A stretch of DNA of 62,710 nucleotides, filler included, from a bacterium (GTDB lineage: Bacteria > JAMORN01), in NCBI GenBank assembly GCA_027063545.1. It is 21 parts of 21 records of this genome, joined end to end, with 100 filler letters (N's around TTAATTAATTAA, not from the genome) between each part and the next. Parts side by side here need not be neighbours in the genome. Positions count along the whole stretch, not along the records: positions 1 to 1,744 come from JAMORN010000072.1; 20 more parts are not named here. One strand, written 5' to 3'. Below, piece after piece: positions 2 to 52,365 of the stretch. The position numbers were made by a program, and so were the translations under genes. A model generated the notes under the pieces. The model searched no databases. It saw only the letters and a list, made by a program, of their open reading frames with translations, and was not told where the DNA came from. How positions within the stretch are numbered: position 1 is the stretch's first letter; each line of letters begins with the position of its first letter.

Positions 2-1744
2 CAAGACTTTTTTAAGAGAGAATGATGAATTAAATTAGACGAATTAGCAGATAAACAAATAGTTAGAATTAAAAATTCTTTTGAGGTATATTATAATCAT
101 CCTTACTTTGAATGAGATATAAATGAAATATCCGCCACTATAATGACATTTCTTTGGATAATTGAGTTTCTAAAAATATCTTCAGACATAACTGGTCCAT
201 ATAATGATTTTATTAAAAATATATCTTTGCATGCTGCGATATGACAAATAACAGATGTAATGTCATTACTGCCAACAACTAAAAATATAGGGTTATTAGT
301 ATATATTTTTGCTAAAAAAAATTTCAATGAAATGCTTAATGAATTAGAAAGACTTTGACAAGAATTATGAGTTTCATTATCATGAGAACAAATTTTAAAA
401 TTTGATGAATCCTGGTCTAGGTTGTCTGATTATTATCAAAGGAAAATAAAGGAAGTACTAAAAGAGACTATTTATACACCTTATTCTATTGTACAAAAAC
501 AATTATGAGATGCTGTAGAATATACTCTATTAAATAAGGAAATACTATTTCTAATGAGAGTAAAGAAAATAGCAAAATTTAATGTTTCAAATATTTGATT
601 TGTGATTTGACCTATTATTAATGGGTTAGGTAGATTATCTTCTGTGGAAGAATTATTAAATTTCTTTATTTATCTAACAGAAGATCAATCTACTTTATCC
701 CAGAAATATCCTGAAATAGAAAAATTTAAAAATATTACTGAAATTATAAATATTAGAAAGAAAACTGTAGATGAATGAAAAAGATTATTAGAGAGATTTC
801 TTTGATTATATTGAACTCTTAACCAAAAAGAAATGTTATATTTACCTGAAGAATATATCCAGTTTTTATTTCTTATAAGTAAAGAAAAATTTAATTTTAA
901 AGAATATTTAGAACTAGACTCAAAATTTATTGAATTATCTAATAAATGAATTATTCAAACTAAAAAGGATTTATATAAAATATGATTAGATTATTGAATT
1001 TCTGATGAATATATCAGACTTTATAATAAAAATATTTTTAGTTTTATCAGCCCTTTTAATGGATTAATTGCATCTAAAATATCAGATACATATGATATAT
1101 CTACTATTGTTTTATCTGCAATTAAAGATCCTTATCTTAGATTTCATGGGTCTTGAAGATGAATTGGAAATATAAATCTAAATACGCTTCTTCAAGATCT
1201 AAAATGAATTTTATTACAATACTGAATTAATATTAACGGATGAGGACATTCTGATGCTGTAGGTTTAGAAATGGAATACGACACTTGAAAAAGAGTATTT
1301 TATTATGAAGATATTCTAGATCTATATTACTTTATTCAAAGTATTATTAAACAATATTTAGATTGATATTTATTTCCAAATTGAAATATTAATGAAGAAG
1401 CTATTTATGATTTCTATAAACCTATAGTTTATAAAAAACTAATTTTAAAATATTCTTGACAAGATATTATTTGACTATTAGATGAATTAATGTTTTTGGC
1501 GGATAAATGGACTATCTTTGGTAATTGATTTAGCTGGAAACCAGTATATATTCCTATAGATATATTTTTTAATACATTATGGAATTCTAATAAGATTAAA
1601 AATTTTGATAATATAAATTTTCAAATCTGATGAAAGTATTTATATGCTGATATTTATATGAGAAAAATTTATAAAAATTTAATTAAAGATAAAGATTTAA
1701 ATTGATTGTTAGAAGAGTTTAGTTATGTTAAAATAGATGTTATG
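2..1744 (+). CDS. recJ: RecJ-like DHH/DHHA1 ssDNA exonuclease encoded with TGA=Gly (translation table 25); truncated at both ends
   Basis: Frame +2 has no TAA/TAG over 581 codons but 30 TGA. Reading TGA as Gly gives RecJ motifs in the canonical order: AAI[G]QITDVMSL, NI[G]FVI[G]PIINGLGRL, INIRK, GLIASKISDTYDISTIVLS, GS[G]R[G]IG, G[G]GHSDAVG, IFGN[G]F. The supplied ORF track misses it. Confidence 0.9.
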
Positions 1745-1844
1745 NNNNNNNNNNNNNNNNNNNNNNNNNNNNNNNNNNNNNNNNNNNNTTAATTAATTAA
1801 NNNNNNNNNNNNNNNNNNNNNNNNNNNNNNNNNNNNNNNNNNNN
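1745..1844. other. Artificial contig-joining linker (N44-TTAATTAATTAA-N44), first of 20
   Basis: An identical 100-nt linker with stops in all six frames also starts at 3587, 5426, 7239, 17725, 19521, 21316, 23108, 24879, 35163, 36928, 38690, 40448, 50626, 52366, 54098, 55825, 57551, 59273 and 60995. Confidence 0.99.
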
Positions 1845-2648
1845 CATTACAGCTATACCATGGGATACTACCTTATACTTTCCTGCAGTTTCTATTACAT
1901 GTCCAAAGGTATGTCCATAATTTAATAATCTTCTTAACCCCTTTTCCTTTTCATCTGCACTTACAACTTGGGATTTTATCTTTACATTATTGTATATTAA
2001 ATCTATTAGAAGATTTTTTCTCTCTTCTTTAATTAATTCAACTATATTATTATTTTCAATAATATCCCTTAAAATCTTATTCCCACTTATAAAATAGTGT
2101 TTTATTATCTCTCCTATACCATTTAATATGTTTTTTAAATCTAAAGTTGATAACAAATTTAAATCTATAAAAACAGCATCTGGTTGGTAAAATGTTCCTA
2201 TTAAATTTTTACCAAGTTTATGATTGATACCTGTTTTCCCTCCCACTGAAGAATCAACCATTGAAAGCAGTGTAGTAGGAACTTGTATTAAATTTATACC
2301 TCTGTATAAAGTACTTGCTACAAATCCAGCTATATCACCAACAACCCCTCCCCCAAAAGCAATAATACAGCTCTTACGAGAAAGGGAAGAATCAATAAAA
2401 AAGTCAATTGCACTATAATAAGTCTCTATATTTTTATATTCTTCTCCATCTCTCATTTTAAATATTGTATTAATTTGACTAAAAAGAGATATATCTTTAT
2501 AAATATCATAAATTGTTTCATTGGTAAAAATACCAACCTTATCACTTTTTATATTTGTTTCAATAAAATCTAATATCGAGTCTACAATATTATAAGATAT
2601 ATAAATATCATAAACCTTACTTTTGGCATTAACCTTTAATATTTTCAT
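1845..2648 (-). CDS. aroB: 3-dehydroquinate synthase (3'-truncated)
   Basis: GGGVVGDIAGFVAS, PTTLLSMVDSSVGGKTGIN, KNLIGTFYQP and LNYGHTFGH motifs; follows aroK. Confidence 0.97.
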
Positions 2649-3159
2649 CCTTTATTATCCTTATTATGTTTTCTACAACCTCAGGTATTGAATCCTCTAA
2701 ATTACTCCTTACAGTATAATGAGCCTGTTTGTATAAAGGTAATCTCTTCTCTAATAGAGTTTTAATCTTTTCTATCTTCTGTTCTTCTGTTAATCCTGCC
2801 AGTAAAGGTCTATTTTGATCACCTTTAACCCTATGATAAATACTTCTTACATCTGCATCCAAAAATATTAAAATTCCATTTTTCTTTATATAATCAATTA
2901 CATTCTTATTTTGTAATGTGCCTCCACCTAAAGATAATACAATATTATCAATACCTTCTAAAGTTTCCTTTAAATATTTTATTTCAATCTCTCTAAAATA
3001 CTTCTCCCCATATTCTTTAAAGATATCTGGTATAGATCTTTTTTCCTTTTGGATAATATACTCATCTAAATCTATAAACTTATATCCTAACTTTTTAGCT
3101 AATTCCCTTCCAATATATGTTTTTCCACTTCCCATAAATCCTGTTAATATTATCCTCAT
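2629..3159 (-). CDS. aroK: Shikimate kinase
   Basis: GFMGSGKT P-loop, DLD, GEKYFR, LGGG, RPLL. Confidence 0.96.
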   Translation of the reverse strand: MRIILTGFMGSGKTYIGRELAKKLGYKFIDLDEYIIQKEKRSIPDIFKEYGEKYFREIEIKYLKETLEGIDNIVLSLGGGTLQNKNVIDYIKKNGILIFLDADVRSIYHRVKGDQNRPLLAGLTEEQKIEKIKTLLEKRLPLYKQAHYTVRSNLEDSIPEVVENIIRIIKDENIKG

Positions 3160-3586
3160 GTTAATTTCTCCATTAAATAACCCTTTAATGAATCAATATA
3201 TATATGACGTAAATGCCCATACTCTGCAATACTAATTCTTCCTGTTTCCTCTGATAAAATAATAGATATAGCATCTGTTTCTTTAGTAATTCCAACACCA
3301 GCTCTATGTCTTGAACCCACATGATAATGGGATACATAATCACTAGGAATCTCAGCTAGAGGCAACATACATCCGGCTTGTATAATCTTATTGGATTTTA
3401 TTATAACAGCTCCATCATGTAAAGGCGTATCTTTATAAAAGATAGTTACTAATAAATCCTTCTTAACATCTGCATTAATAAAAACACCCCTTTGTTGTAC
3501 ATTATCTGATACATTTATATTCCTTTCTATAACTATAATAGCTCCAAATTTTAACTCCTGCAATTCCTTAATAGCTTCTATTATCT
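3156..3586 (-). CDS. cdaA: Diadenylate cyclase (DisA_N/DAC domain, CdaA-like), 5'-truncated
   Basis: TPLHDGAV (DGA) and GSRHRAG (RHR) catalytic motifs, SEETGRIS; frame open to the contig edge. Confidence 0.9.
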
Positions 3587-3687: not shown

Positions 3688-4692
3688 AAAAAAAGAATAA
3701 ATGATATTAAATTACCTTCTAAAATAGACTTTGAAGAAAATATAGATAATATTTTGGTTGTTTCAAAACAAATAGAAGACTATATGCAGTCTCATATTAG
3801 AGGGAACTTTAGAATTGATCATAGTGCTATTACTTGTGCTTCTATTGCGGGTATGCTTTATTTAGTCGGGCAAGTGAGTAGATTGGTATCTCAACCAGGA
3901 AATTACAAAATATCGAAAAAATTAAAATACAATAAGCATTTTGGCTTAAAAAACGCAGATGATAAATTGAAATATTTGTTTTATGAGATAGGGTACTGGC
4001 AATATTTTGGAATTGGAAAGCCATATCATATTGAAAAAAACATCAAAGAAAATTATTTTTTATCTATTGAGAGTAATAGTAAAAGTGATATAAAACTTTT
4101 GAATAAAATTAAAAAATTTATTAAAGGAAAAGTATCTATATTCGATAGTTATGTGAAGGAATATAAGTTTGATGATGCCATTAAAGAAGCAATGGGAAAT
4201 GCACTGGAGCATGCGTATACAGAAGATTTTCTTCAACCAGGTAAGATAAAAGGAAAATGGTGGATTTGTGGACATTATGATAATATTTGTAAAACATTAG
4301 AGTTAGTATTTTATGATTATGGTATTGGTATTAGAGAGTCTATGAAGAATAATATGGGTGAAGAAGCTAAAATATTTCTCATGGATAAATTATCTGATAA
4401 ATTTATAAAAAACGATGCCGATTTAATTGGTGTTGCGATGGAAGGTAAATTATCAAAATACAAACGCTACAAAGAGCGAGATCGAGGAAAAGGTTTCCAA
4501 AGATTTAAAGATTTTGCTAGAAGTTCTGAATTAGATTGTGAGTTGAGTGTTGTTTCAGGATCGGGATTATATAAATATATATATCAATATAACAAAAATA
4601 TAGAAACGGTAAAAAAGAAAACATTATCTAATAGTATTGATGGTATGTTAATTAAGTGGAAAATTAAGATAGGAGATAGAGATGGAGCGTAA
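3688..4692 (+). CDS. GHKL (HATPase_c) ATPase/Ser kinase with an N-terminal STAS-like region, 5'-truncated
   Basis: N-box EAMGNALEHAY, G1 YDYGIGI, G2 RGKGF, then SVVSGSG and GMLIKW; frame open to the contig edge. Confidence 0.8.
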   Translation, partial: KKRINDIKLPSKIDFEENIDNILVVSKQIEDYMQSHIRGNFRIDHSAITCASIAGMLYLVGQVSRLVSQPGNYKISKKLKYNKHFGLKNADDKLKYLFYEIGYWQYFGIGKPYHIEKNIKENYFLSIESNSKSDIKLLNKIKKFIKGKVSIFDSYVKEYKFDDAIKEAMGNALEHAYTEDFLQPGKIKGKWWICGHYDNICKTLELVFYDYGIGIRESMKNNMGEEAKIFLMDKLSDKFIKNDADLIGVAMEGKLSKYKRYKERDRGKGFQRFKDFARSSELDCELSVVSGSGLYKYIYQYNKNIETVKKKTLSNSIDGMLIKWKIKIGDRDGA

Positions 4693-5782: not shown

Positions 5783-7238
5783 ATGAGATTCTTAATATAT
5801 TTTTTTCTAACATCTTCAAATTTAATTTATTCTTATTATAATGATATCTTTTATAATGATGTTATTGATTCTTTAAGATTTAATCTTTATAAGTTAGAAA
5901 ATTTTTACTCTTATTTTCCTTTAAATAACAATGTTTCATATTTAAAGGTTGATTATCAAAGTTTTAAGATGGAAGATTATAATGATTGGAGTATAAAAGA
6001 GAATGTTCTTCCGTACTTTGAATATGTTTCCCATAATGAAGATAGATTTGATATTTTAATTAGTTATAAAAGATTAGCAGATGTGTTAATTTTAAACTCT
6101 TCAGATAGTATTTATTATAAAAACTCTATGAATAAATTAGATTTCTTTTGGATTATAGGTAATCCTAAAACAAAAGCAGGACTTTTAATAAATATTTTAA
6201 TAGGTAATGGATATTTCTATTCAAATTATCCTTACTCTGCTTATGATTATGATATTCCATTAATAGGAGGGATAAAATTTGGTTTTGTTTCAAGGACAAC
6301 CCCAACTCCTAACTTAGGAATAAATTTTGAACTATATTTTGATGGAGCAGGTGATAGTATATCTTATATTGATGAGACAAGAAATTATATTGATGGAAGT
6401 GTAAGAGGCGATTTTATGCCAGATGTAAATTTTAGTTTAGATTATAAAACTGAGAAGTTTTTTACAATGGGATTTTTAAAATATTATACCTATTCAAGAA
6501 TTCAAAATACTCATTTTTATTATAATGAAACAGATGTAAAGCCTAAAACTCGCGTAGATCAAAACACCACAAGTATTTTAAGTTATGGTGTATATGGTAG
6601 TTATTATTTGAGAGAATTTAATCATTATTTTTTAGGACTAACCTTTAAAAAATCAAAAACTCAGTTTTATAAGCCAACAGAGGATAATAATTTCCCAACA
6701 TCTCATGGTGATATAATTGATAGTTTATATTATAAGTATAGTTTATTTACCTTTCCTTTAGGTTTAGATTATTTTTATAATAAGTTTAAATTTTATTTTA
6801 AAATAGAATATAGTAGTGTTAAGTTTGATGTTGGTAGTTTTGTTGAGGATAGAAATCTTTTTAGCAGTAGTTTTTTTCCTCCAGAGGATAACATAACATA
6901 TAGATACCCTATAGATATAGATTTTACTAAAGAGAAAGAATCTGGTTATAAGATAAACTTTTTATCAGAGTTTGAAGTTAATAAAAATATAACAATTTAT
7001 TTACCTTTGGGATTTATTAAAGCAATAAAAGAAGGAGATTTATTTTCAGGTGATTTTTTAGCCTATACAAAGGTGACAAATTTTGCTGATCAAGAGATGA
7101 ATTTAGGGCTTTTATATAATACTTCTTCAAAGGCAGGGGATCTTTATTATTTCCCAACAGGTTATTACAATTCAACAACAGATATGTTTTTTGTTAAGCC
7201 TTTATACCAAAAATATTTTGGTTTAGGTTTTGATGGAG
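5783..7238 (+). CDS. Hypothetical exported/outer-membrane protein (3'-truncated)
   Basis: AGGAG RBS; Tyr/Phe-rich alternating beta-strand patterns; no recognised family. Confidence 0.6.
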
Positions 7239-13214: not shown

Positions 13215-14108
13215 TTATTCCTTTTTTATAATCATAAACCTCCAGTTTCCAAAAGAATCCTTTACTATATCTATTTTAAAATTTTTATATATATTTTTCA
13301 ATCCTTCTATCTGTTCTTTTCTACCAAACTCAAAAATAAAATATCCTCCTTCTCTTAAAACTTTCATTATAGATTCAGAATTTTTTCTATGAAATAATAA
13401 CCCATCTTTCCCAGAAATTAAAGCAATCTCAGGCTCCCATCTCTTTATTTCATCTTGTAAAGTTGGAAATATATCTTCTTCAATATAAGGAGGATTAGAA
13501 ACTATAATATCAAATATTTCTCTTTTAAAACAAGTAGTCCCATCGCAATTTACTATATTCACATCTAAGTTATATCTATCTCTATTTATTTTACTGACAT
13601 CTATAGCTTCTTTAGATATATCAGATAATGTTATTTCTAAATCTTTTTTTAATAATTTTAAGGTGATACCTATTACCCCACTACCTGCTGCTAAATCTAA
13701 AATTTTTAATTGGGTACTATTAAAATTATTTCTTATTATATTTAATACAACATCAATTAAATCTTCTGTCTCTTGTCGAGGAATTAAAACACCTTCTCTT
13801 ACATAAAATTCATAACTGTAAAAATTTACTTTCCCAACTATATATTCTATTGGTTTCCTTTCAAAAACTCTCTGTCTTATTAATTCTCTTATTTCTAGTT
13901 TTTCTTCTTCTTTTATTTCTTTTTCAAAATTCAAGTAAATATCTACTCTATTTTTAAAACCCAAAACATGTTGAAATATAAGTTCAGTATTGAATCTTGG
14001 ATTTTCAATTTTCTTATCCTTTAGATAATTGAGAGTTGTATCAAAGAGATCCTTTAGATTCCAATATCTACGAGCTTTAGGATCATAACTTTTTGAAATA
14101 TTCCTCAT
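13215..14108 (-). CDS. prmC: Release factor glutamine methyltransferase
   Basis: [30 protein letters not shown]; overlaps prfA. Confidence 0.95.
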
Positions 14109-15153
14109 ATTCCGCAGATTTTAAAGCTTCTATAAATGGCATAATATCACCATCTAATACTTCTTCTAAATTATATAAAGTTAAATTTATTCTATGATCT
14201 GTAACTCTATTTTGAGGGAAATTATAAGTTCTTATTTTTTCAGATCTATCCCCACTCCTAACCATAGATTTTCTCATAGAAGATTCTTTTTCCATCCTCT
14301 TTCTCATCTCTATTTCATAAAGTTTAGATCTCAAAATTCTTAATGCTTTTTCTTTATTTTGATGCTGAGATCTTTCATCCTGACATGAAACTACAATACC
14401 TGTAGGAATATGAGTAATTCTAACAGCAGATTCTGTTTTATTAACGTATTGTCCTCCAGCTCCTGAGGCCCTAAATGTATCTACTCTTAAATCTTCCTCT
14501 TTTATATCTATATCAAACTCTTCAGCTTCAGGCATTACTACAACACTTGCTGCTGAAGTATGGATTCGGCCTTGAGATTCTGTTACAGGAACTCTCTGAA
14601 CCCTATGGACACCTCCTTCATATTTTAAAAGTCCATAAGCATCTGGCCCTGAAACCATAAAAATAATTTCCTTATATCCTCCTAAATCAGAGGGAGTAGA
14701 TGACATAATCTCTATCTTAAAACCCTGCCTTTCAGCAAATCTAACATACATTCTATATAAATCTCCAGCAAAAATAGCTGCTTCCTCCCCTCCTGTCCCT
14801 GCTCTTATTTCCATAATAGCATTTTTATGATCTTCAGGAGAAGGTGGTACTAAAGCTAACTTAACCTTCTCTTCTAATTTTTGTAGTTTCTTCTGAGATT
14901 CTATCAATTCTTTTTCTATAGATTCCTTTAACTCTTCATCATCAAATGCTTCTTTCAACATTTCTTTATATTCTTCTACTTCCTTCTGAGCATTCTCATA
15001 CTCATCAATTATACTTATATTCTTTTTTAATTTCGCATACTTTTGGGATAATTCTTTAAATTTATTATTATCACTTATAACATCAGGATCCTGCAATTTA
15101 TTTTCTAATTCTTTAAATTCCTCTCTTAATTTGGAAATTGCCTTCTCAAACAT
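14083..15153 (-). CDS. prfA: Peptide chain release factor 1
   Basis: PVT anticodon motif (RVPVTES), [19 protein letters not shown]; ends in TGA used as a stop. Confidence 0.98.
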
Positions 15154-15374
15154 TACTTCTTACCTAATTTTCCCAAATAATCTCCATATTTCTTTTTAAA
15201 TTTATCAATCTTACCCGCTGTATCCACAAATTTTTGTTTTCCTGTATAAAATGGATGGCAATTAGCACATACTTCTACTCTTAAATCTCCCACCGTATTT
15301 CTTGTTTTTAAAACAAATCCACATGAGCATGTAATTGTTGCTTCTTTATACTCTGGATGTATACCTGGCTTCAC
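15153..15374 (-). CDS. rpmE: 50S ribosomal protein L31 (Zn-binding type)
   Basis: [25 protein letters not shown]. Confidence 0.97.
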
Positions 15375-21315: not shown

Positions 21316-21548
21316 NNNNNNNNNNNNNNNNNNNNNNNNNNNNNNNNNNNNNNNNNNNNTTAATTAATTAANNNNNNNNNNNNNNNNNNNNNNNNNNNNN
21401 NNNNNNNNNNNNNNNATAGAGAGTATAAGGTATATTCATATTTTTTTATAGGAGGATTAATTTTAAATAGATTTATTTCTAATATTGATTTATATTTTTC
21501 TACAAGAAATCTTAAAGTAGAACTAAAAAAGACTATTGGTAATTAAAG

Positions 21549-23099
21549 ATGTATGGAGATGATAGATTTTTAGTTTTATATAGGATTTTAAAAGAATATG
21601 ATTGGACAGGTGAATTACCTGAATATTCTAAATTATTAAAAAAGGATATAAATAAGTTAGAGGATATTCTGAGAGATTTTATAAAATATCAATTAGTTAA
21701 ACCTAAACAACTAGAACTATGGCAGAAAATATCCTCTGATAGCCAATATTCTTTAATTTACGATACTCTTAAATATTTAATTCAAAAAGCTTTAAATGTC
21801 GATATAAATGTAGCTCATGAATATGCTATAAAGCTTTTGACTTTTTCTAATAAAAAAGAAATCGAAAAATTAAATAGAGAAATAAAAAATTATATACTAA
21901 AAGATGAAACCCAAGAAATAATTACAGAATTAAAAGAAACGATTACATTTTTAATTTCATACTTTTATACTGAAAATGAAGAGATAAATAAACAACTGGA
22001 TGAGATAAAATTAAATTTAAGAAATTCTGTAGAAGCAAAAGAAATCAAAAATATAAGAGAAATGATTTTAAATATTATATTAAAAAATAATAATGTAATT
22101 TCTTCTCAGGAATGGGCAATATCTATTTATAAATTTTTATTTATAGTGTTAATAACCAATTTAAAACATCCGGATAATAAAGATTTTAATAAAAAAGTAG
22201 ATGAATTCAAAAGAAAAGTAGAGAATATAGATATATCAACTGATTTTTCTGAGATTCAAGAGGATATAAAGCAATTAATAGCGGAATATAAATCATTAAT
22301 TTCTAAAATTGACCAAAGTAAATATATAAAAGAAGTAAAAAATCTAATTATAGAATTACTTGAGATATTAAAAAATATTCTTATTATAGAAGTAGATGAG
22401 CAGGATATTATAGAGGAAAATATTGATAAAATAAGGGAATTAATAGAAGATTCGGAGAATATAGATGATATAAGAGAAAAAATTTTATCATTTATTTATA
22501 ATATAAAATCAAATATAAAGGACAGAAAGAATAATTTAAATAAAGTAAAAAATGAATTGACAGAACTAAAAAGAAAAGTAGTTGTATTAGAGGAGAAGTT
22601 AAAAAATACATTAAGCGAGATGTATTATGACCCATTAACCAAAGTTTATAATAGACGGGCTTTAGAGGAGAATTTGCCTCTTATAAATAAAGAAATACAA
22701 GATTTAAAAATAGATTATTGTATAGCTTTTATTGATTTAGATAATTTTAAACATATTAATGATAATTATGGCCACCAGATTGGAGATATTGTATTAAAAA
22801 AGATAGTTTCTATAATAAAAGCTATGATACCAAGTGGTGCAGATATTTATAGGTATGGGGGAGATGAATTTTTAGTTTTATTTAAAGATATAAAAAAGGA
22901 TAATGCTAAAATAATCTTGAGTTCTATTAAAGATAAGGTAAGTTCTTTAAAATTTAAATATAACGATAAATATTTAAATGTTACTTTATCAATTGGATTA
23001 ATGAAAGTTAAAGATGATATATATAAGGCTATTGATGAAGCTGATAAACTAATGTATGAAAGTAAAAAACATGGAAAAAATAGGTTGGTAGTAAAATGA
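21549..23099 (+). CDS. Diguanylate cyclase (coiled-coil N-terminus plus GGDEF domain)
   Basis: DPLTKVYNRR, IDLDNFKHINDNYGHQIGD, RYGGDEF, ADKLMYESKKHGKN. Confidence 0.93.
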   Translation: MYGDDRFLVLYRILKEYDWTGELPEYSKLLKKDINKLEDILRDFIKYQLVKPKQLELWQKISSDSQYSLIYDTLKYLIQKALNVDINVAHEYAIKLLTFSNKKEIEKLNREIKNYILKDETQEIITELKETITFLISYFYTENEEINKQLDEIKLNLRNSVEAKEIKNIREMILNIILKNNNVISSQEWAISIYKFLFIVLITNLKHPDNKDFNKKVDEFKRKVENIDISTDFSEIQEDIKQLIAEYKSLISKIDQSKYIKEVKNLIIELLEILKNILIIEVDEQDIIEENIDKIRELIEDSENIDDIREKILSFIYNIKSNIKDRKNNLNKVKNELTELKRKVVVLEEKLKNTLSEMYYDPLTKVYNRRALEENLPLINKEIQDLKIDYCIAFIDLDNFKHINDNYGHQIGDIVLKKIVSIIKAMIPSGADIYRYGGDEFLVLFKDIKKDNAKIILSSIKDKVSSLKFKYNDKYLNVTLSIGLMKVKDDIYKAIDEADKLMYESKKHGKNRLVVK

Positions 23100-46360: not shown

Positions 46361-46984
46361 TTATTTTTCTATAATTTCTACAATTTTTTCATATAATTTA
46401 TTATAATCATAAAAACCTTCATATTGAGGAAATTCTTTCATAACCTTTTCAGAACCATTAAAAAAGAAAGCCATATCTGCTTCTTTAAACATTAATGTAT
46501 CATTATAAGAATCTCCTATTGATATAACATAAAAACCCATATCCTTTAAATTTCTAACTGCTCTTTGTTTTCCATTGCCTTTTTGATCCCTCATTACATA
46601 ATCAACAATAAAACCATCTTCTCCTATTATTAAACTATTACAAAAAATTGTAGGATAATCTAATTTATATGCTATAGGCATGAAAAACTCATAAAAGGTA
46701 TCGGATAAGATAATAAACTGAAATTTTTCTCTTATTTTATTGATAAACTCCTTTGCTCCTTCTAATGGCTCTATTTTTTTTATAATCTCTATTAAATCAA
46801 TATATTTTATGTTATTCTCTCTTAAAGTTGTTATCCTCATCTTCATCAACTGCTCATAATCAGATATATCTCTGGTTGTTAACTTTAGTTTTTCAATTCC
46901 TGTGATTGTAGCAACCTCTATCCAAAACTCCGGGAAAATAACCCCTTCTAAATCTGATATTATAACTACTGGTTTATTAATCAT
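46361..46984 (-). CDS. thrH: Bifunctional phosphoserine phosphatase/homoserine phosphotransferase
   Basis: DLEGVIFPEFW, LTTRDISDY, ILSDTFYEF, GDSYNDT. Confidence 0.93.
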   Translation of the reverse strand: MINKPVVIISDLEGVIFPEFWIEVATITGIEKLKLTTRDISDYEQLMKMRITTLRENNIKYIDLIEIIKKIEPLEGAKEFINKIREKFQFIILSDTFYEFFMPIAYKLDYPTIFCNSLIIGEDGFIVDYVMRDQKGNGKQRAVRNLKDMGFYVISIGDSYNDTLMFKEADMAFFFNGSEKVMKEFPQYEGFYDYNKLYEKIVEIIEK

Positions 46985-49074
46985 ATATATCTCCCCTTTT
47001 TCTCTATTAAAACCTTTATTGTGTATGGTTCTACTTTTATCTTCTTTGTATAAACTTTTTCCTCTTTATCTAAAAAGCTATTATCTTCTCTGTAGGTATC
47101 TATTTTAAGAAAAAATTCTCCTTCTGGAATCTCAAAAAATAGATCCTTCTCCCAGAAATTAAATATCATAAATACCTGTTTTAGATTATTACCCTTTATA
47201 TCCTTTTTTTCTTTCAATAGGACTGCTATACTTCTTGAAAAATATGAAAAATCAGGCTTATTTAGTTTTATGCCATGGAAGGAAATATCTAAATAATTTT
47301 CTATCTCCTTATATGTTTTCATTTTAAATATTCTATTTTCTTTTCTAAAATGAATTAACTTTTTTACAAACTCAAAAAACCATCTATTTTTTTCTAAAAA
47401 CTCCCAATTATACCAGGAAATCTCATTATCCTGACAATATGCATTATTATTACCCTTTTGTGTTCTTAAAAACTCATCTCCTCCTAACATCATTGGGGTT
47501 CCTTGAGATAAAAATAATATCGTCATAAAATTCTTCACCTGTCTTTTTCTAATTTTTAAAACCTTTGTATCATCGGTTTCTCCCTCAACCCCATAATTGA
47601 AAGAATTATTATTATTATCCCCATCCCTATTTTCCTCTCCATTCTCCCAATTATGCTTATCATTATAAGAGACTAAATCCCAAAGTGTAAATCCATCATG
47701 AGCAGTTATAAAATTAATAGAATGAACAGGCTCTCTTCCTGAAGGCTTATATAAATCTGGACTACCCAATAATCTATTTACAAAATCCCTTACAACCCCA
47801 TAATCACCTTTTACAAAACGTCTTACATCATCTCTAAACTTTCCATTCCATTCAGCCCATCTTTCCCCTGGAAAATTTCCAACCTGATAAAGCCCTGCCG
47901 CATCCCAAGCCTCTGCAATTATTTTTGTTTTGGAAAGTACAGGATCCTTGGAAATCTGCTCTATTACAGGTGGATTGGGTAAAACATTACCCTTCTCATC
48001 TCTTGAAAGAATACTTGCCAAATCAAATCTAAATCCATCAACATGCATCTCTGTTACCCAATACCTTAATACATCAATTATAAAATTACGAACAACAGGA
48101 TGATTTGAATTAACAGTATTTCCACATCCTGAAAAATTCAAGAAATTTCCATTATCATCTATCATATAATAGGTTTTTGCATCTAATCCCTTAAAAGAAT
48201 AAATCACCTCTGGTGAGGCTCCTTCTCCTGTATGATTAAATACTACATCTAAAATAATCTCTATCCCATATTCATGAGCTTTTTTTACTAATAATTTAAA
48301 TTCATCAACCTGACCACCTCTTATACCACTCTCAGCATAAGAAGCCTTTGGAGCAAAAAAGGCTAAAGTTGAATATCCCCAATAATTATATAGTCTTTCA
48401 CCTGTTTTAGGATTTTTATTAATATTTTCTAGTTCATCAAACTCCATTATAGGCATTAATTCTATTGCTGTTATACCCAACTCTTTTAAATATGGAAGTT
48501 TTTCTATCAATCCTTTGAACGTACCTCTTGATTTAACCCCAGAAGAAGGATGGATTGTAAATCCTCTTACATGAGTTTCATATATTATTGTATCAGCATA
48601 ACATCGAGCAAGTTGTCTATCATCCTGCCAATCGAAATTGGATTTTACAACAAAACTTCTTCTTTGATATCCATAATAATTTCCTTTTCTTTTAAAACGC
48701 TTCCCCCACTCTGCCCCGCCGGATAAGGCCAAAGAATATGGATCAAAAAGCACTTTTTTAGGATTAAAAAACTTACCTTCTTTAGGATTAAATTCTCCAA
48801 AAGCCCTATATCCATATTTTACATTCCCAGGAAGACCCTCTATATAAATATGCCAAATATGGCCTGTTTTATTTAAAACAGGATCAAGTTCTATCTCTAT
48901 AAAAGGAGGCTCTTTTCCACTTTCAAATAGAACTAAATGAATTCTTTCTGCTAAAGAAGAATAAACACTAAAATTTATACCATTCTCTATGAAATTCGCC
49001 CCTAATGGAAGAGGCTTCCCTCTTCCTATTTTTAAATAGTAATCTTTTACTTGAATTTCTTGATAAATAAACAC
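46981..49074 (-). CDS. glgX: Glycogen debranching enzyme (isoamylase, GH13); start approximate (GTG 49074)
   Basis: GKPLPLGA, NYWGY, DVVFNHTGEG, VDGFRFDLAS, IAEAWD, NFITAHDGFTL, GNNNAYCQDNE. Confidence 0.95.
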   Translation of the reverse strand: MFIYQEIQVKDYYLKIGRGKPLPLGANFIENGINFSVYSSLAERIHLVLFESGKEPPFIEIELDPVLNKTGHIWHIYIEGLPGNVKYGYRAFGEFNPKEGKFFNPKKVLFDPYSLALSGGAEWGKRFKRKGNYYGYQRRSFVVKSNFDWQDDRQLARCYADTIIYETHVRGFTIHPSSGVKSRGTFKGLIEKLPYLKELGITAIELMPIMEFDELENINKNPKTGERLYNYWGYSTLAFFAPKASYAESGIRGGQVDEFKLLVKKAHEYGIEIILDVVFNHTGEGASPEVIYSFKGLDAKTYYMIDDNGNFLNFSGCGNTVNSNHPVVRNFIIDVLRYWVTEMHVDGFRFDLASILSRDEKGNVLPNPPVIEQISKDPVLSKTKIIAEAWDAAGLYQVGNFPGERWAEWNGKFRDDVRRFVKGDYGVVRDFVNRLLGSPDLYKPSGREPVHSINFITAHDGFTLWDLVSYNDKHNWENGEENRDGDNNNNSFNYGVEGETDDTKVLKIRKRQVKNFMTILFLSQGTPMMLGGDEFLRTQKGNNNAYCQDNEISWYNWEFLEKNRWFFEFVKKLIHFRKENRIFKMKTYKEIENYLDISFHGIKLNKPDFSYFSRSIAVLLKEKKDIKGNNLKQVFMIFNFWEKDLFFEIPEGEFFLKIDTYREDNSFLDKEEKVYTKKIKVEPYTIKVLIEKKGRYI

Positions 49075-49145
49075 CTTTATTCTCTTAGTTTTGATTATTT
49101 TAATTTTATTATTGATTGAAAAATAAATTTTAAAATAAAGAAATG

Positions 49146-49170
49146 AAAAAAAGCCCTGCATAAGCAGGGC
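49146..49170 (-). terminator. Intrinsic terminator after the NADH oxidase-like gene
   Basis: Minus strand GCCCTGC-TTAT-GCAGGGC-T7. Confidence 0.85.
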
Positions 49171-49184
49171 AAAAATTAATAAGT

Positions 49185-50525
49185 TTAAAACTTCATCTTT
49201 TTCATTGCATTCTCTGCAGCTAAAACTATAGGATACATAGTTGGAGGAGCTGTTAAGAGTGGATGAGTTCCAAATTGCATTGTAAATAGTTCCTCTGCTG
49301 TCATTCCCTTTTGAATTGCAAGTCCTAATATATTTATAATTTCTCCAACACTCCTTCCCCCTAAAATTTGAGCTCCTATTAATACACAAGAACTTCTTGA
49401 AAAGATTAATTTTATCTTTATCTTTTCTGTACCTGGAAGTTTGCCTGGGTGTTTATCTATTGTTTGAGCTTCTCCTATAACAAAATCAAAATATTCTTCC
49501 ATTGCCATTGTTTCATTTAATCCTGCTGCAGCAAATGTTAATCCCTCTATTGAAGAAGAGAATATTGCTATATTTCCTTTATTTTCTCTTATCATCTTTA
49601 TTCCATAAAGATTAGAAGCCGCAATTCTTGCATCAAATGTTGCTGTTGAAGCAAGCATCAATCTTGAAGCCCTTCTAGTATAAAAATCCTTATGTTCAAC
49701 ACAATCACCACATGCAAAAATGTCCTTTTCAGATGTTCTCATATACTCATCTGTCCATATTGCGCCTGTCTTACCTATAAATAATCCTAACTTTTGTGCC
49801 AACTCTACATTAGGTTTATATCCAACTGAAAGTATTGCTGCATCCACATCTATTACTTCTCCATCCTCAAATTCTATCCTTTCAAGCTTTCCATTACCAA
49901 TAAATCTTTTAACCCTTTTTGATGTTTTTATTTCAACCCCTTTAGATTTTAAATTTTCCTCTATAACCTCAGAAAAATCCTTATCAAAAGCAACTGGTAA
50001 TATTCTATTCTGTGCCTCTATTAAATAAACTTTTTCTACCTCTTTTCTAATTTCATCTGTTACCTCAACTCCTATAAATCCTGCTCCTATAACAGCAACT
50101 CTCTTTGCTTTCTTTATTTTTTCAACCATATTTTTTAAATACTCATAATCTTTTGGAACAACAAAAATATTTTCTAAATCTTTTCCTTCAATTGATGGAA
50201 CAAATGGTTTAGAACCTGTTGCTAAAACTAATTTATCGTACTTTATTTTATCACCGCTTTTGGTTATAACCTCTTTGTTATCTTTATCAATATCAACAAC
50301 CTCATCATAAATAAATTTAACCCCTAAATCCTCAATTGGTTTAACACCCATTATATCATCATCTACAGATTTTAATGTAGAAAAAATATATGGAATACCA
50401 CATGGAACCATTGATATCTTCTCTTTTCTTATAACCGCTACCTCTTTATCTGGATACATTACTTTAGCAGTCTTTGCTGCTATTAACCCTGCAGCAGAAC
50501 CTCCAATTACTACTATATCAGCCAT
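49185..50525 (-). CDS. FAD-dependent pyridine nucleotide-disulfide oxidoreductase (NADH oxidase/CoA-disulfide reductase family)
   Basis: VVIGGSAAG, single redox Cys in VPCGIPY, LATGS, IGAGFIG, IFACGDC, dimerisation domain. Confidence 0.9.
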   Translation of the reverse strand: MADIVVIGGSAAGLIAAKTAKVMYPDKEVAVIRKEKISMVPCGIPYIFSTLKSVDDDIMGVKPIEDLGVKFIYDEVVDIDKDNKEVITKSGDKIKYDKLVLATGSKPFVPSIEGKDLENIFVVPKDYEYLKNMVEKIKKAKRVAVIGAGFIGVEVTDEIRKEVEKVYLIEAQNRILPVAFDKDFSEVIEENLKSKGVEIKTSKRVKRFIGNGKLERIEFEDGEVIDVDAAILSVGYKPNVELAQKLGLFIGKTGAIWTDEYMRTSEKDIFACGDCVEHKDFYTRRASRLMLASTATFDARIAASNLYGIKMIRENKGNIAIFSSSIEGLTFAAAGLNETMAMEEYFDFVIGEAQTIDKHPGKLPGTEKIKIKLIFSRSSCVLIGAQILGGRSVGEIINILGLAIQKGMTAEELFTMQFGTHPLLTAPPTMYPIVLAAENAMKKMKF

Positions 50526-50726
50526 CTTTTTCTCCTTGTTTTTTTATTTTTGTTATTTTTTTCACATTTTTAAAAAAATAATTTAAAATGTTAGAACAAT
50601 CAAACTTTTTTTTTGGAAAATTTAANNNNNNNNNNNNNNNNNNNNNNNNNNNNNNNNNNNNNNNNNNNNTTAATTAATTAANNNNNNNNNNNNNNNNNNN
50701 NNNNNNNNNNNNNNNNNNNNNNNNNT

Positions 50727-51116
50727 ATTGGTTTTGTAGTAGGGGTTAAGCCTTTGGGTGAGGCTGTAATAGAGATGGCAATAAGTTCTGCTTTTTCTGA
50801 TCCTCGATTTATGCCTTTATCAAAAGAGGAGTTAGACAAGATTGAGATAGAAATTTCAGTATTAACACCTCTTGAAAAGATTGATGATATAGAAAAAATA
50901 GAGGTTGGAAGACATGGAATTTTAATAAGAAGAGGTTTTTATAGTGGATTACTTCTTCCTCAGGTTGCTGTTGAATGGGGTTGGGATAGATATGAGTTTT
51001 TAACCCAAACTTGTTATAAAGCAGGCTTATCTGGCGATTATTGGAAATATGAGGATACTGAGATTTATATTTTTAGTGCTATTATCTTTAATGAGAGAGA
51101 ATTTGGGTTGGGGTAG
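50727..51116 (+). CDS. amrA: AMMECR1-domain protein (AmmeMemoRadiSam system protein A), 5'-truncated
   Basis: AFSDPRF, IEISVLTP, GRHGI, GLLLPQVAVE, KAGL. Confidence 0.9.
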   Translation: MGFVVGVKPLGEAVIEMAISSAFSDPRFMPLSKEELDKIEIEISVLTPLEKIDDIEKIEVGRHGILIRRGFYSGLLLPQVAVEWGWDRYEFLTQTCYKAGLSGDYWKYEDTEIYIFSAIIFNEREFGLG

Positions 51117-51189
51117 GTTATTTTATCATCTAAAAAAGACAAGAGATAATAAAACCAATCTATAATAAAAAAAATTTTAAAATTTTTTG

Positions 51190-51996
51190 GCTTTTTATTT
51201 TAGTTGTATTATAATATATAACAGATACTCTATAGAAATATATAATAAAGAAGATAGTCTTTTGAATGATAAAAAAAATATAAATAGATTTTATTCAGAA
51301 AATAATAAACTTATTAAAAATGGTGAACAGATTTGGCATATACAATAATATATGATAATGGTAAAATTGTATTATTTGATGATAATTATTTAAAAAAAAG
51401 AATAAATTTTTAATAAAAAACATTTTTTTCTTTTTAAAGTATATATTTTTATCAAAATTAAAAACTTATATAAAAATAAGATTTAAAACTAGAAGATCAA
51501 GCACTAAAAAGGTCATTTTTAATAATCCTAAAGACTTTTTACGTAAATGTATATTACAAAAAATTTATATTTCGTTTTGGTGAAGATAGAAACAAGAAGA
51601 TTAATGCACTGAATAATACATATATAAAATTGTTATATAAAGAACTTAGTAAAGGGTTTAAAGAAAGAATAAAAAGAGAACTGATCTTTTTTCTTAAAAC
51701 AATGTTCTCTCCATTCTAAATAAGTTATATATATACATCTTTAAAAAAAATGGTTATAAGAGGATATATATAAATAAAATTATTGGTATTTATAATGATA
51801 TAGATGGTGTACCTAATTTATACCAGGTAATGTACTAGTAGTATATGATATAGAGTTTATAGTATCTTCTAGTTATTATGAGTTTTCAGAGGGTATACCA
51901 AAAGATATTTCGTCATTCCTTGAAGAGATTAATAATATAATCTCAGAAAACTATGCAAATTTAGAAACACAAAAACTTATCTTGGAATATAAATAA
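51190..51996 (+). pseudogene. Probable decayed gene of unknown family; boundaries approximate
   Basis: Successive protein-like open segments in shifting frames, e.g. DLKLEDQALKRSFL..., IPGNVLVVYDIEF...QKLILEYK*. Confidence 0.4.
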
Positions 51997-52124
51997 ATCA
52001 TTTAAAAATAAATACTTCTTTATAAATATTATTAAGTATAATTTTTTTCAATTTATTGAGATTGATTTTTAATTATATAAAAAATATTTTTTATTTAAAA
52101 TACAAAACAATAGGAGAATTAACT

Positions 52125-52365
52125 ATTTATAAAGTAGGTTTTATCAACATAGGTGATGAACTTTTAGATGGAAGTGTAATTGATACGAATTTCTCTTTTG
52201 CTTCCCAAATTTTATTCACTGCTGGATATAAGGTATTATATCAATTAAAAGTTTCTGATATAAAAGAAGAGATTATTGATAGTTTAAATTTTCTTTATAA
52301 CAAGGTTGATATAATAATAATCTCAGGAGGACTTGGTCCAACAGGTGATGATCTAACAAGGTTTG
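52125..52365 (+). CDS. cinA: CinA-like (molybdopterin-binding domain) protein, 3'-truncated; start uncertain
   Basis: INIGDELLDGSVIDTN, ISGGLGPTGDDLT. Confidence 0.85.

Follow-up and report, generated by a model that had tools for sequence, protein, structure and literature searches.

A RecJ-like gene fragment that reads TGA as glycine and is very probably mis-binned among standard-code bacterial contigs

Introduction

Genetic code 25, which assigns glycine to TGA, has been described for Gracilibacteria (BD1-5) and Absconditabacteria (SR1) and for their phages and prophages (Liu et al. 2023; PMC10746230). In a study of hydrothermal vent deposits (PMC9793634), the most prevalent Patescibacteria include Gracilibacteria, whose open reading frames (ORFs) were called there with code 25. 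Here, we analyzed a DNA stretch of 62,710 nucleotides (nt), filler included, from the bacterial assembly GCA_027063545.1. This whole stretch, referred to below as the window, joins 21 contigs end to end, with an artificial spacer (44 N, 12 nt and 44 N) between each contig and the next. Contig 1 (positions 1-1744) had been described in a first-pass annotation as a RecJ-like gene of a different, recoded organism, or of its virus, in which TGA stands for glycine rather than tryptophan or selenocysteine. Our results indicate that contig 1 is very probably a mis-binned internal piece of a RecJ-like gene that uses TGA as glycine (translation table 25) and is foreign to the standard-code bin in which it was placed. 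The reassignment, the bacteria and phages that use it and its occurrence at vents are already in print (PMC10746230, PMC9793634); what is added here is a rare RecJ-like family in a mis-binned code-25 entity.

An open frame with thirty TGA codons

Contig 1 has a GC content of 22% and is open from end to end in frame +2 (positions 2-1744), where 581 codons include 30 in-frame TGA and neither TAA nor TAG. When the mononucleotides of the contig were shuffled 1000 times, the longest frame free of TAA and TAG had a mean of 77 and a maximum of 183 codons. Under the standard table 11, the longest frame comprised 108 codons and lay on the opposite strand, and frames of at least 100 codons occupied 19% of the contig, versus 100% when TGA was read as sense. 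TGA made up 5.2% of all codons, GGN 1.9% (11 codons: four GGA, four GGT and three GGG) and TGG 0.86% (five codons). The codon counts made by hand in the first-pass annotation matched ours exactly.

A comparison of frames with and without TGA as a sense codon was then made for each of the 21 contigs, and only contig 1 required TGA as sense, its longest frame growing from 108 to 581 codons. In all 20 other contigs the longest frame shifted by at most 11 codons; they contain 46 stop-bounded frames with a length of 150 codons or more, and 9 of these end in TGA. Three genes for which a true TGA stop had been claimed do end in TGA. The first is prfA (14083-15159, minus strand), a full-length gene whose product matched the release factor 1 profile over positions 2-344 of 347. 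The second is an ORF for a GGDEF cyclase (21543-23099), where TGA follows at profile position 166 of 168, and the third an ORF at 3156-3563 (minus strand), called cdaA in that annotation and named here by that label only. The glgX gene (46981-49452) is also among the long frames with a TGA end. Because the other 20 contigs use TGA as a stop, including the end of a full-length prfA, contig 1 appears foreign to the bin, and the earlier proposal of a different, recoded entity is borne out by its being the sole contig in need of TGA as sense.

TGA stands for glycine

To determine the residue encoded by TGA, contig 1 was compared with seven protein relatives (P0004, 94% identical and 973 amino acids (aa) long; P0005-P0007, about 44% identical; P0008-P0010, about 31%), with two metagenome loci that carry the gene and were recovered by DNA motif search (L020 and L021), and with eight RecJ-sized representatives translated with the standard code, whose own tryptophan content is 0.2-0.5%.

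Four lines of evidence agreed with the earlier claim that TGA means glycine and not tryptophan. The first was composition. TGA and GGN together form 7.1% of the codons in the contig 1 frame, and the proteins of contigs 2-21 contain 5.8% glycine and 0.84% tryptophan; thus, reading TGA as glycine gives a normal protein, whereas reading it as tryptophan gives one with 6.0% tryptophan. Second, when the frame was re-translated with glycine, an unknown residue (X) or tryptophan at TGA and compared with hidden Markov models (HMMs), glycine scored above X and X above tryptophan, both for the RecJ model TIGR00644 (57.0, 49.7 and 41.6 bits, respectively) and for Pfam DHHA1 (22.4 bits, 17.0 bits and no match). 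Third, in codon-level alignments the 30 TGA codons of the window faced 10 TGA, five GGN, one TGG and 14 other codons in L020, and eight GGN, three TGA, no TGG, 17 other codons and two gaps in L021, and the 40 TGA codons of L020 faced 16 GGN and no TGG in L021. Among all codon pairs, the partners of GGN were TGA in 37 and glycine codons in 36 cases, and those of TGG encoded phenylalanine (11), tyrosine (3) or tryptophan (2). Fourth, the 30 TGA columns held 133 residues in the eight standard-code representatives, among them 45 glycines, 19 alanines, 15 glutamates, 11 serines and not a single tryptophan; a majority of tryptophan had been named in advance as a finding that would speak against glycine. 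With all ambiguous letters masked, the log-odds summed over the 29 columns with data were +30.1 bits for glycine, -18.2 for alanine (the next best residue) and -80.8 for tryptophan, glycine being the sole residue with a positive value. The RecJ glycine positions singled out in the first-pass annotation (TGA codons at 242, 596, 608, 1241 and, in the IFGN-TGA-F stretch, 1526) were mostly glycine in these representatives (Table 1).

We therefore conclude that TGA in contig 1 is translated as glycine and that TGG is kept for tryptophan. TGA is the preferred glycine codon (30 of 41), as is expected in DNA of 22% GC. The window fragment itself includes no gene end, and its frame is free of TAA and TAG; the relatives' genes have full-length frames delimited by TAA or TAG. 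By analogy with the code-25 lineages Gracilibacteria and Absconditabacteria, decoding would need a tRNA-Gly with the anticodon UCA and the absence of a release factor 2 acting on TGA.

An alternative reading takes TGA as tryptophan (table 4), its meaning in Mycoplasmatota and in TGA-recoded phages whose hosts use the standard code. It deserves consideration, since the frame is open to the same extent under table 4, the relatives are stored in public protein collections with tryptophan at TGA, and a single TGA column lies opposite a true TGG in L020. Against it stand the composition given above, the lowest rank of the tryptophan translation in every HMM comparison, the lack of tryptophan among the 133 standard-code residues, the strongly negative log-odds of tryptophan next to the positive value of glycine, and the fact that TGG still occurs at a normal tryptophan frequency and opposite aromatic residues. 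This alternative is thus very improbable.

The TGA codons of contig 1 are not sequencing errors. Eight public runs carry part of the contig 1 stretch, and the best of them may itself be the source. Another one (X2, from a different sample and a different study) contains a 6583-nt contig that spans all 1744 nt with nine substitutions and no gaps. None of the nine falls within a TGA codon, and the differences found in runs X3 and X4 likewise lie outside TGA codons; it should be noted that runs X3-X8 cover small shares of the stretch and that the uncovered parts in X3 and X4 carry no meaning. The protein P0004 has tryptophan, from a translation of TGA as tryptophan, at all 30 TGA columns. An artefactual or untranslated frame, whether by misreading of GGA as TGA (which had been named as a possible refutation), by decay to a pseudogene, by multiple selenocysteines or by local read-through in the main organism, is hardly conceivable: in the run that is the likely source, contigs that match exactly have a low depth (3.1-4.9), which would favor it, but all 30 TGA codons recur in the X2 contig at a depth of 11.8, relatives at 30-94% identity retain long open frames in which TGA swaps with GGN, no TAA or TAG occurs over 581 codons of such AT-rich DNA, the catalytic residues are kept, and the main organism uses TGA to end full-length genes including prfA. 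Thirty selenocysteines at glycine columns would have no precedent to our knowledge.

A divergent RecJ-like protein, probably a nuclease

The counterpart of the fragment in P0004 is residues 379-959 (94% identity over fragment residues 1-581), so the contig begins downstream of the DxD, D and DHH motifs and ends upstream of the final 14 residues. Of the DHH-domain motifs, only the last aspartate, that of ITDVM, is therefore inside the window. Features within and next to the fragment are listed in Table 1.

Table 1. Features of contig 1 and its border, in window coordinates (g, TGA-encoded glycine; columns are those of the eight standard-code relatives)
Feature	Position	Strand	Remarks
RecJ-like DHH/DHHA1 internal fragment, TGA read as Gly	2..1744	+	581 codons, no start, no stop
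DHH-domain motif: TGA, Q, I-T-D-V-M-S-L-L-P	242..274	+	TGA 242-244 (residue 81; column AAGGAGGG); nine-residue motif 248-274
g-F-V-I-g-P-I-I-N-G-L-G-R	596..634	+	TGA 596-598 (residue 199; column GGGAGGGG) and 608-610 (residue 203; column GGGGGGAG)
S-g-R-g of DHHA1 domain	1151..1162	+	TGA 1154-1156 and 1160-1162; Ser and Arg invariant; column 385 AGAGGGGG; column 387 S/T, but G in L020 and L021
G-g-G-H of DHHA1 domain	1238..1249	+	Middle Gly is TGA 1241-1243 (residue 414; column GGGGGGGG)
TGA in I-F-G-N-g-F	1526..1528	+	Residue 509; column TGEGGGGG, Gly in 5/8
Artificial contig joint (N44 + TTAATTAATTAA + N44)	1745..1844	.	End of contig 1; not biology

The motifs retained in the fragment are strongly conserved, and five of their glycines are written TGA. 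ITDVMSLLP (columns I83-P91) was invariant in all eight aligned family members, and its catalytic-type aspartate (fragment residue 85) as well as the histidine of the GGGH motif were invariant in 19 of 19 sequences, including the RecJ-sized representatives. The motif at 596-634, of the form G-x3-GPxxNxxGR, aligned to 'FRIAPRINAASRL' of Thermus RecJ with invariant P, N and R; this is a weak second domain alignment to the structures 1ir6 and 2zxo. Of the DHH-domain residues, D254, D256, D258, D325, D350 and H351-H352 were at least 90% conserved and D456 was invariant.

Pfam DHH was matched by a full-length relative with 43.1 bits (cut-off 28.1), and in PHROGs the family phrog_2484, 'RecJ-like ssDNA exonuclease', was matched with 60.8 bits (E 1.9e-16). 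A search of the PDB with the family profile returned RecJ chains only (four of four; best E 1.4e-5). This profile was required, as a phmmer search of PDB sequences with the fragment masked by X yielded a chance match only (E 0.78). Matches of the glycine translation to ToxN_toxin and HspR were below their cut-offs and were dismissed as chance.

The fold was examined on an AlphaFold2 model of the full-length L020 protein translated with code 25, a relative 46-48% identical to the window fragment (predicted local distance difference test, pLDDT, 82.9; predicted TM-score, pTM, 0.84). Its best PDB matches were RecJ of Staphylococcus aureus (8y30, E 9e-16) and Deinococcus radiodurans (5f55, E 6e-14), followed by RecJ of Pyrococcus furiosus and Thermus thermophilus, and the top five were all RecJ chains (E 9e-16 to 2e-13, target TM 0.47-0.50). 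Phage RecJ models were matched at E 1e-14. The N-terminal part of about 245 aa, upstream of the DHH domain and outside the window fragment, was modeled as an alpha/beta region mostly at pLDDT 70-90, and residues 1-245 of the L020 gene product (L020 2370-5282, minus strand) had no Pfam match.

On this basis, the gene product is a divergent RecJ-like protein of about 970 aa in the DHH/DHHA1 phosphoesterase superfamily. It is filed as RecJ-like and not as RecJ proper because it scores far below the equivalog cut-off and because the protein of about 970 aa has an N-terminal region without Pfam match. The first-pass identification as a RecJ-like gene therefore holds for sequence profiles and fold, with the caveat that it applies to a divergent relative rather than to a canonical RecJ. 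Its motifs and the predicted fold suggest that the protein is most likely a metal-dependent exonuclease for single-stranded DNA (ssDNA).

Relatives and recoded neighboring genes

The recoding extends across the L020/L021 lineage, as all 15 examined ORFs of at least 84 aa in the two loci have in-frame TGA. The neighbors of the gene also scored higher as glycine than as tryptophan translations: three matches to N6_N4_Mtase gave 156.6 versus 119.7, 167.4 versus 128.5 and 72.1 versus 56.2 bits, a CHAP neighbor 41.4 versus 35.0 bits and a Band_7 neighbor 119.9 versus 117.8 bits, whereas a MazG neighbor was unchanged (29.0 versus 28.9 bits). Among the neighboring genes, a TGA lies within the stretch FLGSgTT, which we take to be the S-adenosylmethionine-binding motif.

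Some features of these loci are worth recording in their own right. L021 carries three tandem paralogous N6_N4 DNA methylases (5-1165, 1251-2390, 2433-3545 and 3733-4125), the third of which looks split, its C-terminal part GGxxxGISK...WxGGGEF being a separate ORF of 130 aa about 190 nt downstream. L020 encodes two small proteins (949-1206 and 6430-6933, minus strand) built of Y/W-H-L-I-K/R-x-G-K-D-L-x-E-G repeats, in which several motif glycines are TGA and for which no Pfam or PHROG family was found.

The family is rare: only four clusters were found at E<=1e-10 among 1.84 billion representatives, a figure that refers to proteins recovered by gene callers. Among the family members, none came from NCBI or UniRef and none bore a functional name. 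In public collections, P0004-P0007 have tryptophan at TGA and a tryptophan content of 4.6-5.5%, so that the same motifs read DYDSDG or DYDSDW, DNGG or DNWW, and GGH or GWH in different rows of the alignment, and three members of the P0009 cluster are fragments of 52-156 aa from the JGI named 'hypothetical protein'. Mis-translated family entries in public collections comprise P0004-P0010, P0015-P0017 and P0027.

Origin of contig 1

Several observations weigh against the view that contig 1 is a foreign piece of a TGA=Gly RecJ-like gene. The tetranucleotide signature, which had been proposed as a check, did not tell contig 1 apart from the bin: its profile correlated with that of the bin at r 0.949, the fifth lowest value of 34 pieces, that is, as well as the bin's own pieces. 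The Pfam DHHA1 match, over fragment residues 356-425, stayed at 22.4 bits below the cut-off of 25.9, and the 57.0 bits for the RecJ equivalog TIGR00644 are far below the cut-off of 396.9, the query being a divergent fragment. In the distant relatives, glycine fills just 45 of the 133 positions at TGA columns (about a third), and many TGA codons are at variable positions. A true TGG was opposite a window TGA in one column of L020 and, in a second alignment, in one column each of L020 and L021. ARAGORN reported no tRNA in the window and none in L020 and L021 (about 19.5 kb of recoded DNA), and hence no tRNA-Gly(UCA) was seen. Finally, the DNA motif for ITDVMSLLP had 19 matches in 185,579 GTDB species genomes, all of them chance matches (tblastn with tables 11 and 4; best E 1.1). 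It is therefore only the code that links contig 1 to Gracilibacteria/Absconditabacteria, as no family match was found in the GTDB species genomes. A peptide-pattern search with the family alignment in GTDB species genomes and viral contigs, in which patterns cannot include TGA, found nothing.

We still regard the foreign origin of contig 1 as very probable. A short AT-rich contig would have been co-binned because its composition resembles that of the bin. The runs with the contig 1 stretch are labeled hydrothermal vent metagenome, and neither contig 1 nor L020 or L021 contains rRNA or ribosomal-protein marker genes.

As to the source, the reading to which we lean, at about an even chance, is a large code-25 phage or another mobile element infecting a TGA=Gly host. 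Genes flanking the L020 member match phrog_139, a deoxynucleoside monophosphate (dNMP) kinase (63.8 bits), and phrog_10415 (57.7 bits); another L020 neighbor has the Pfam domain LPD29, 'large polyvalent protein associated domain' (31.2 bits, cut-off 27), and several L020 ORFs have no family match. Weak tblastn matches of L020 neighbors were to Sinorhizobium phages of 188-207 kb and to phage dNMP kinases. In L021 there are the three DNA methylases in tandem and a protein with a MazG domain, and the predicted fold is matched by phage RecJ models as well as by bacterial ones. The rarity of the family and the absence of its invariant motif from the GTDB species genomes also fit such an element, and code-25 phages and prophages have been described (PMC10746230). 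On the other hand, no gene for a capsid, portal, terminase or tail protein turned up in the parts of L020 (7.7 of 29 kb) and L021 (10.1 of 28.5 kb) that were scanned, with Pfam for the ORFs of both loci and with PHROGs for seven L020 and two L021 ORFs. Two family DNA motifs had no match in IMG/VR, and a tblastn search with the fragment gave no match in 50,697 INPHARED phage records. The SPFH/Band 7 and CHAP genes of L021 are cell-like, and the relatives' contigs of 172 kb (with P0004) and 246 kb (with P0009) would fit Candidate Phyla Radiation (CPR) chromosomes too. Searches with neighbor genes in viral contigs gave nothing or SPFH proteins of 26-31% identity only, which are uninformative.

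The chromosome of a Gracilibacteria/Absconditabacteria-type CPR bacterium from the same vent community is a source whose chance we put somewhat short of even. Its code would be the same, and the relatives lie on long contigs (172 and 246 kb), next to SPFH, CHAP and methylase genes that are ordinary bacterial genes. Gracilibacteria are prevalent in vent deposits (PMC9793634), and vents are where the runs come from according to their labels. However, the search of the 185,579 GTDB species genomes with the invariant motif yielded no true relative, the family members have neither functional names nor sources in NCBI or UniRef, and L020 has neighbors from phage families. The GTDB species set includes Gracilibacteria and Absconditabacteria lineages.

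A broader proposal, which we consider rather unlikely and offer tentatively, is that contig 1 and its relatives represent a TGA=Gly lineage missing from current genome catalogues. This could be a group of related code-25 phages, large (170-250 kb) and infecting CPR bacteria of vents, or else an unbinned lineage of cells recoded outside the known Gracilibacteria/Absconditabacteria. Such a lineage would possess a private RecJ-like family of about 970 aa with a new N-terminal domain, whose members are mis-translated or split in databases.

Other features of the window

At 3156-3159, the letters ATGA belong to two genes of the main organism at once: TGA is the stop of the upstream ORF 3156-3563 (minus strand), and ATG is the start of the gene for shikimate kinase (2629-3159, minus strand). 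Contig 15 (50726-52365) was a second candidate for recoding, since its cover by open frames rose from 0.44 to 0.63 when TGA was read as sense. It was rejected, as the contig includes an AT-rich non-coding stretch of about 0.94 kb (51117-52055). Coding density is lower in this stretch than anywhere else in the window, and standard-code ORFs flank it at 50754-51116 and from 52056 onward; under table 11 it contained no ORF of at least 60 aa, and neither an Rfam match nor a tRNA was found in it. No RNA family of Rfam was found anywhere in the window.

Implications

The knowledge of code 25 itself is unchanged by these results. For the quality control of bins, they show that a short recoded contig can hide in a standard-code bin through similar composition. 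Under table 11, contig 1 yields junk ORFs only, and a comparison of frames with and without TGA for each contig flags the recoding at once. For databases, any homology or structure work on the family starts from wrong sequences, either translated with tryptophan or fragmented. In addition, the known gene repertoire of TGA=Gly entities from hydrothermal vents gains a rare, large RecJ-like nuclease, possibly from phages, and with it a lead to possibly large code-25 phages.

Comparison with known systems

Contig 1 resembles the code-25 genes of Gracilibacteria and Absconditabacteria in having in-frame TGA at glycine columns and TGG as tryptophan, and its relatives resemble them in using TAA and TAG as the only stops. 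AT-rich DNA is another common property, as is the vent habitat in which these bacteria are prevalent (PMC9793634). A difference is that the search with the invariant motif detected the contig 1 family in none of the GTDB species genomes. With the phages and prophages that Liu et al. (2023; PMC10746230) describe for code 25, contig 1 shares dense in-frame TGA and almost no long table 11 ORFs, and the L020 neighbors match phage families; it differs in that no structural or packaging gene was present in the L020/L021 DNA examined and that IMG/VR and INPHARED gave no match. In the case of code 4 (Mycoplasmatota and some recoded phages), TGA is also a sense codon in AT-rich DNA, and databases translated the family in this way, whereas TGA in contig 1 is glycine and not tryptophan.

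At the protein level, the listed models of phage RecJ-like exonucleases (phrog_2484; BFVD models such as A0A8S5V189) are similar to the family by sequence profile and fold but have 318-602 aa, and the INPHARED records had no tblastn match. The bacterial RecJ 5'-3' ssDNA exonuclease (TIGR00644; 8y30, 5f55, 2zxo and 1ir6) is only 12-14% identical to the family in its solved structures and lacks the extra N-terminal region of about 245 aa of the family protein of about 970 aa; nevertheless, it has the same DHH and DHHA1 domains, shares the conserved aspartate, DHH and GGH residues, and provides the best fold matches.

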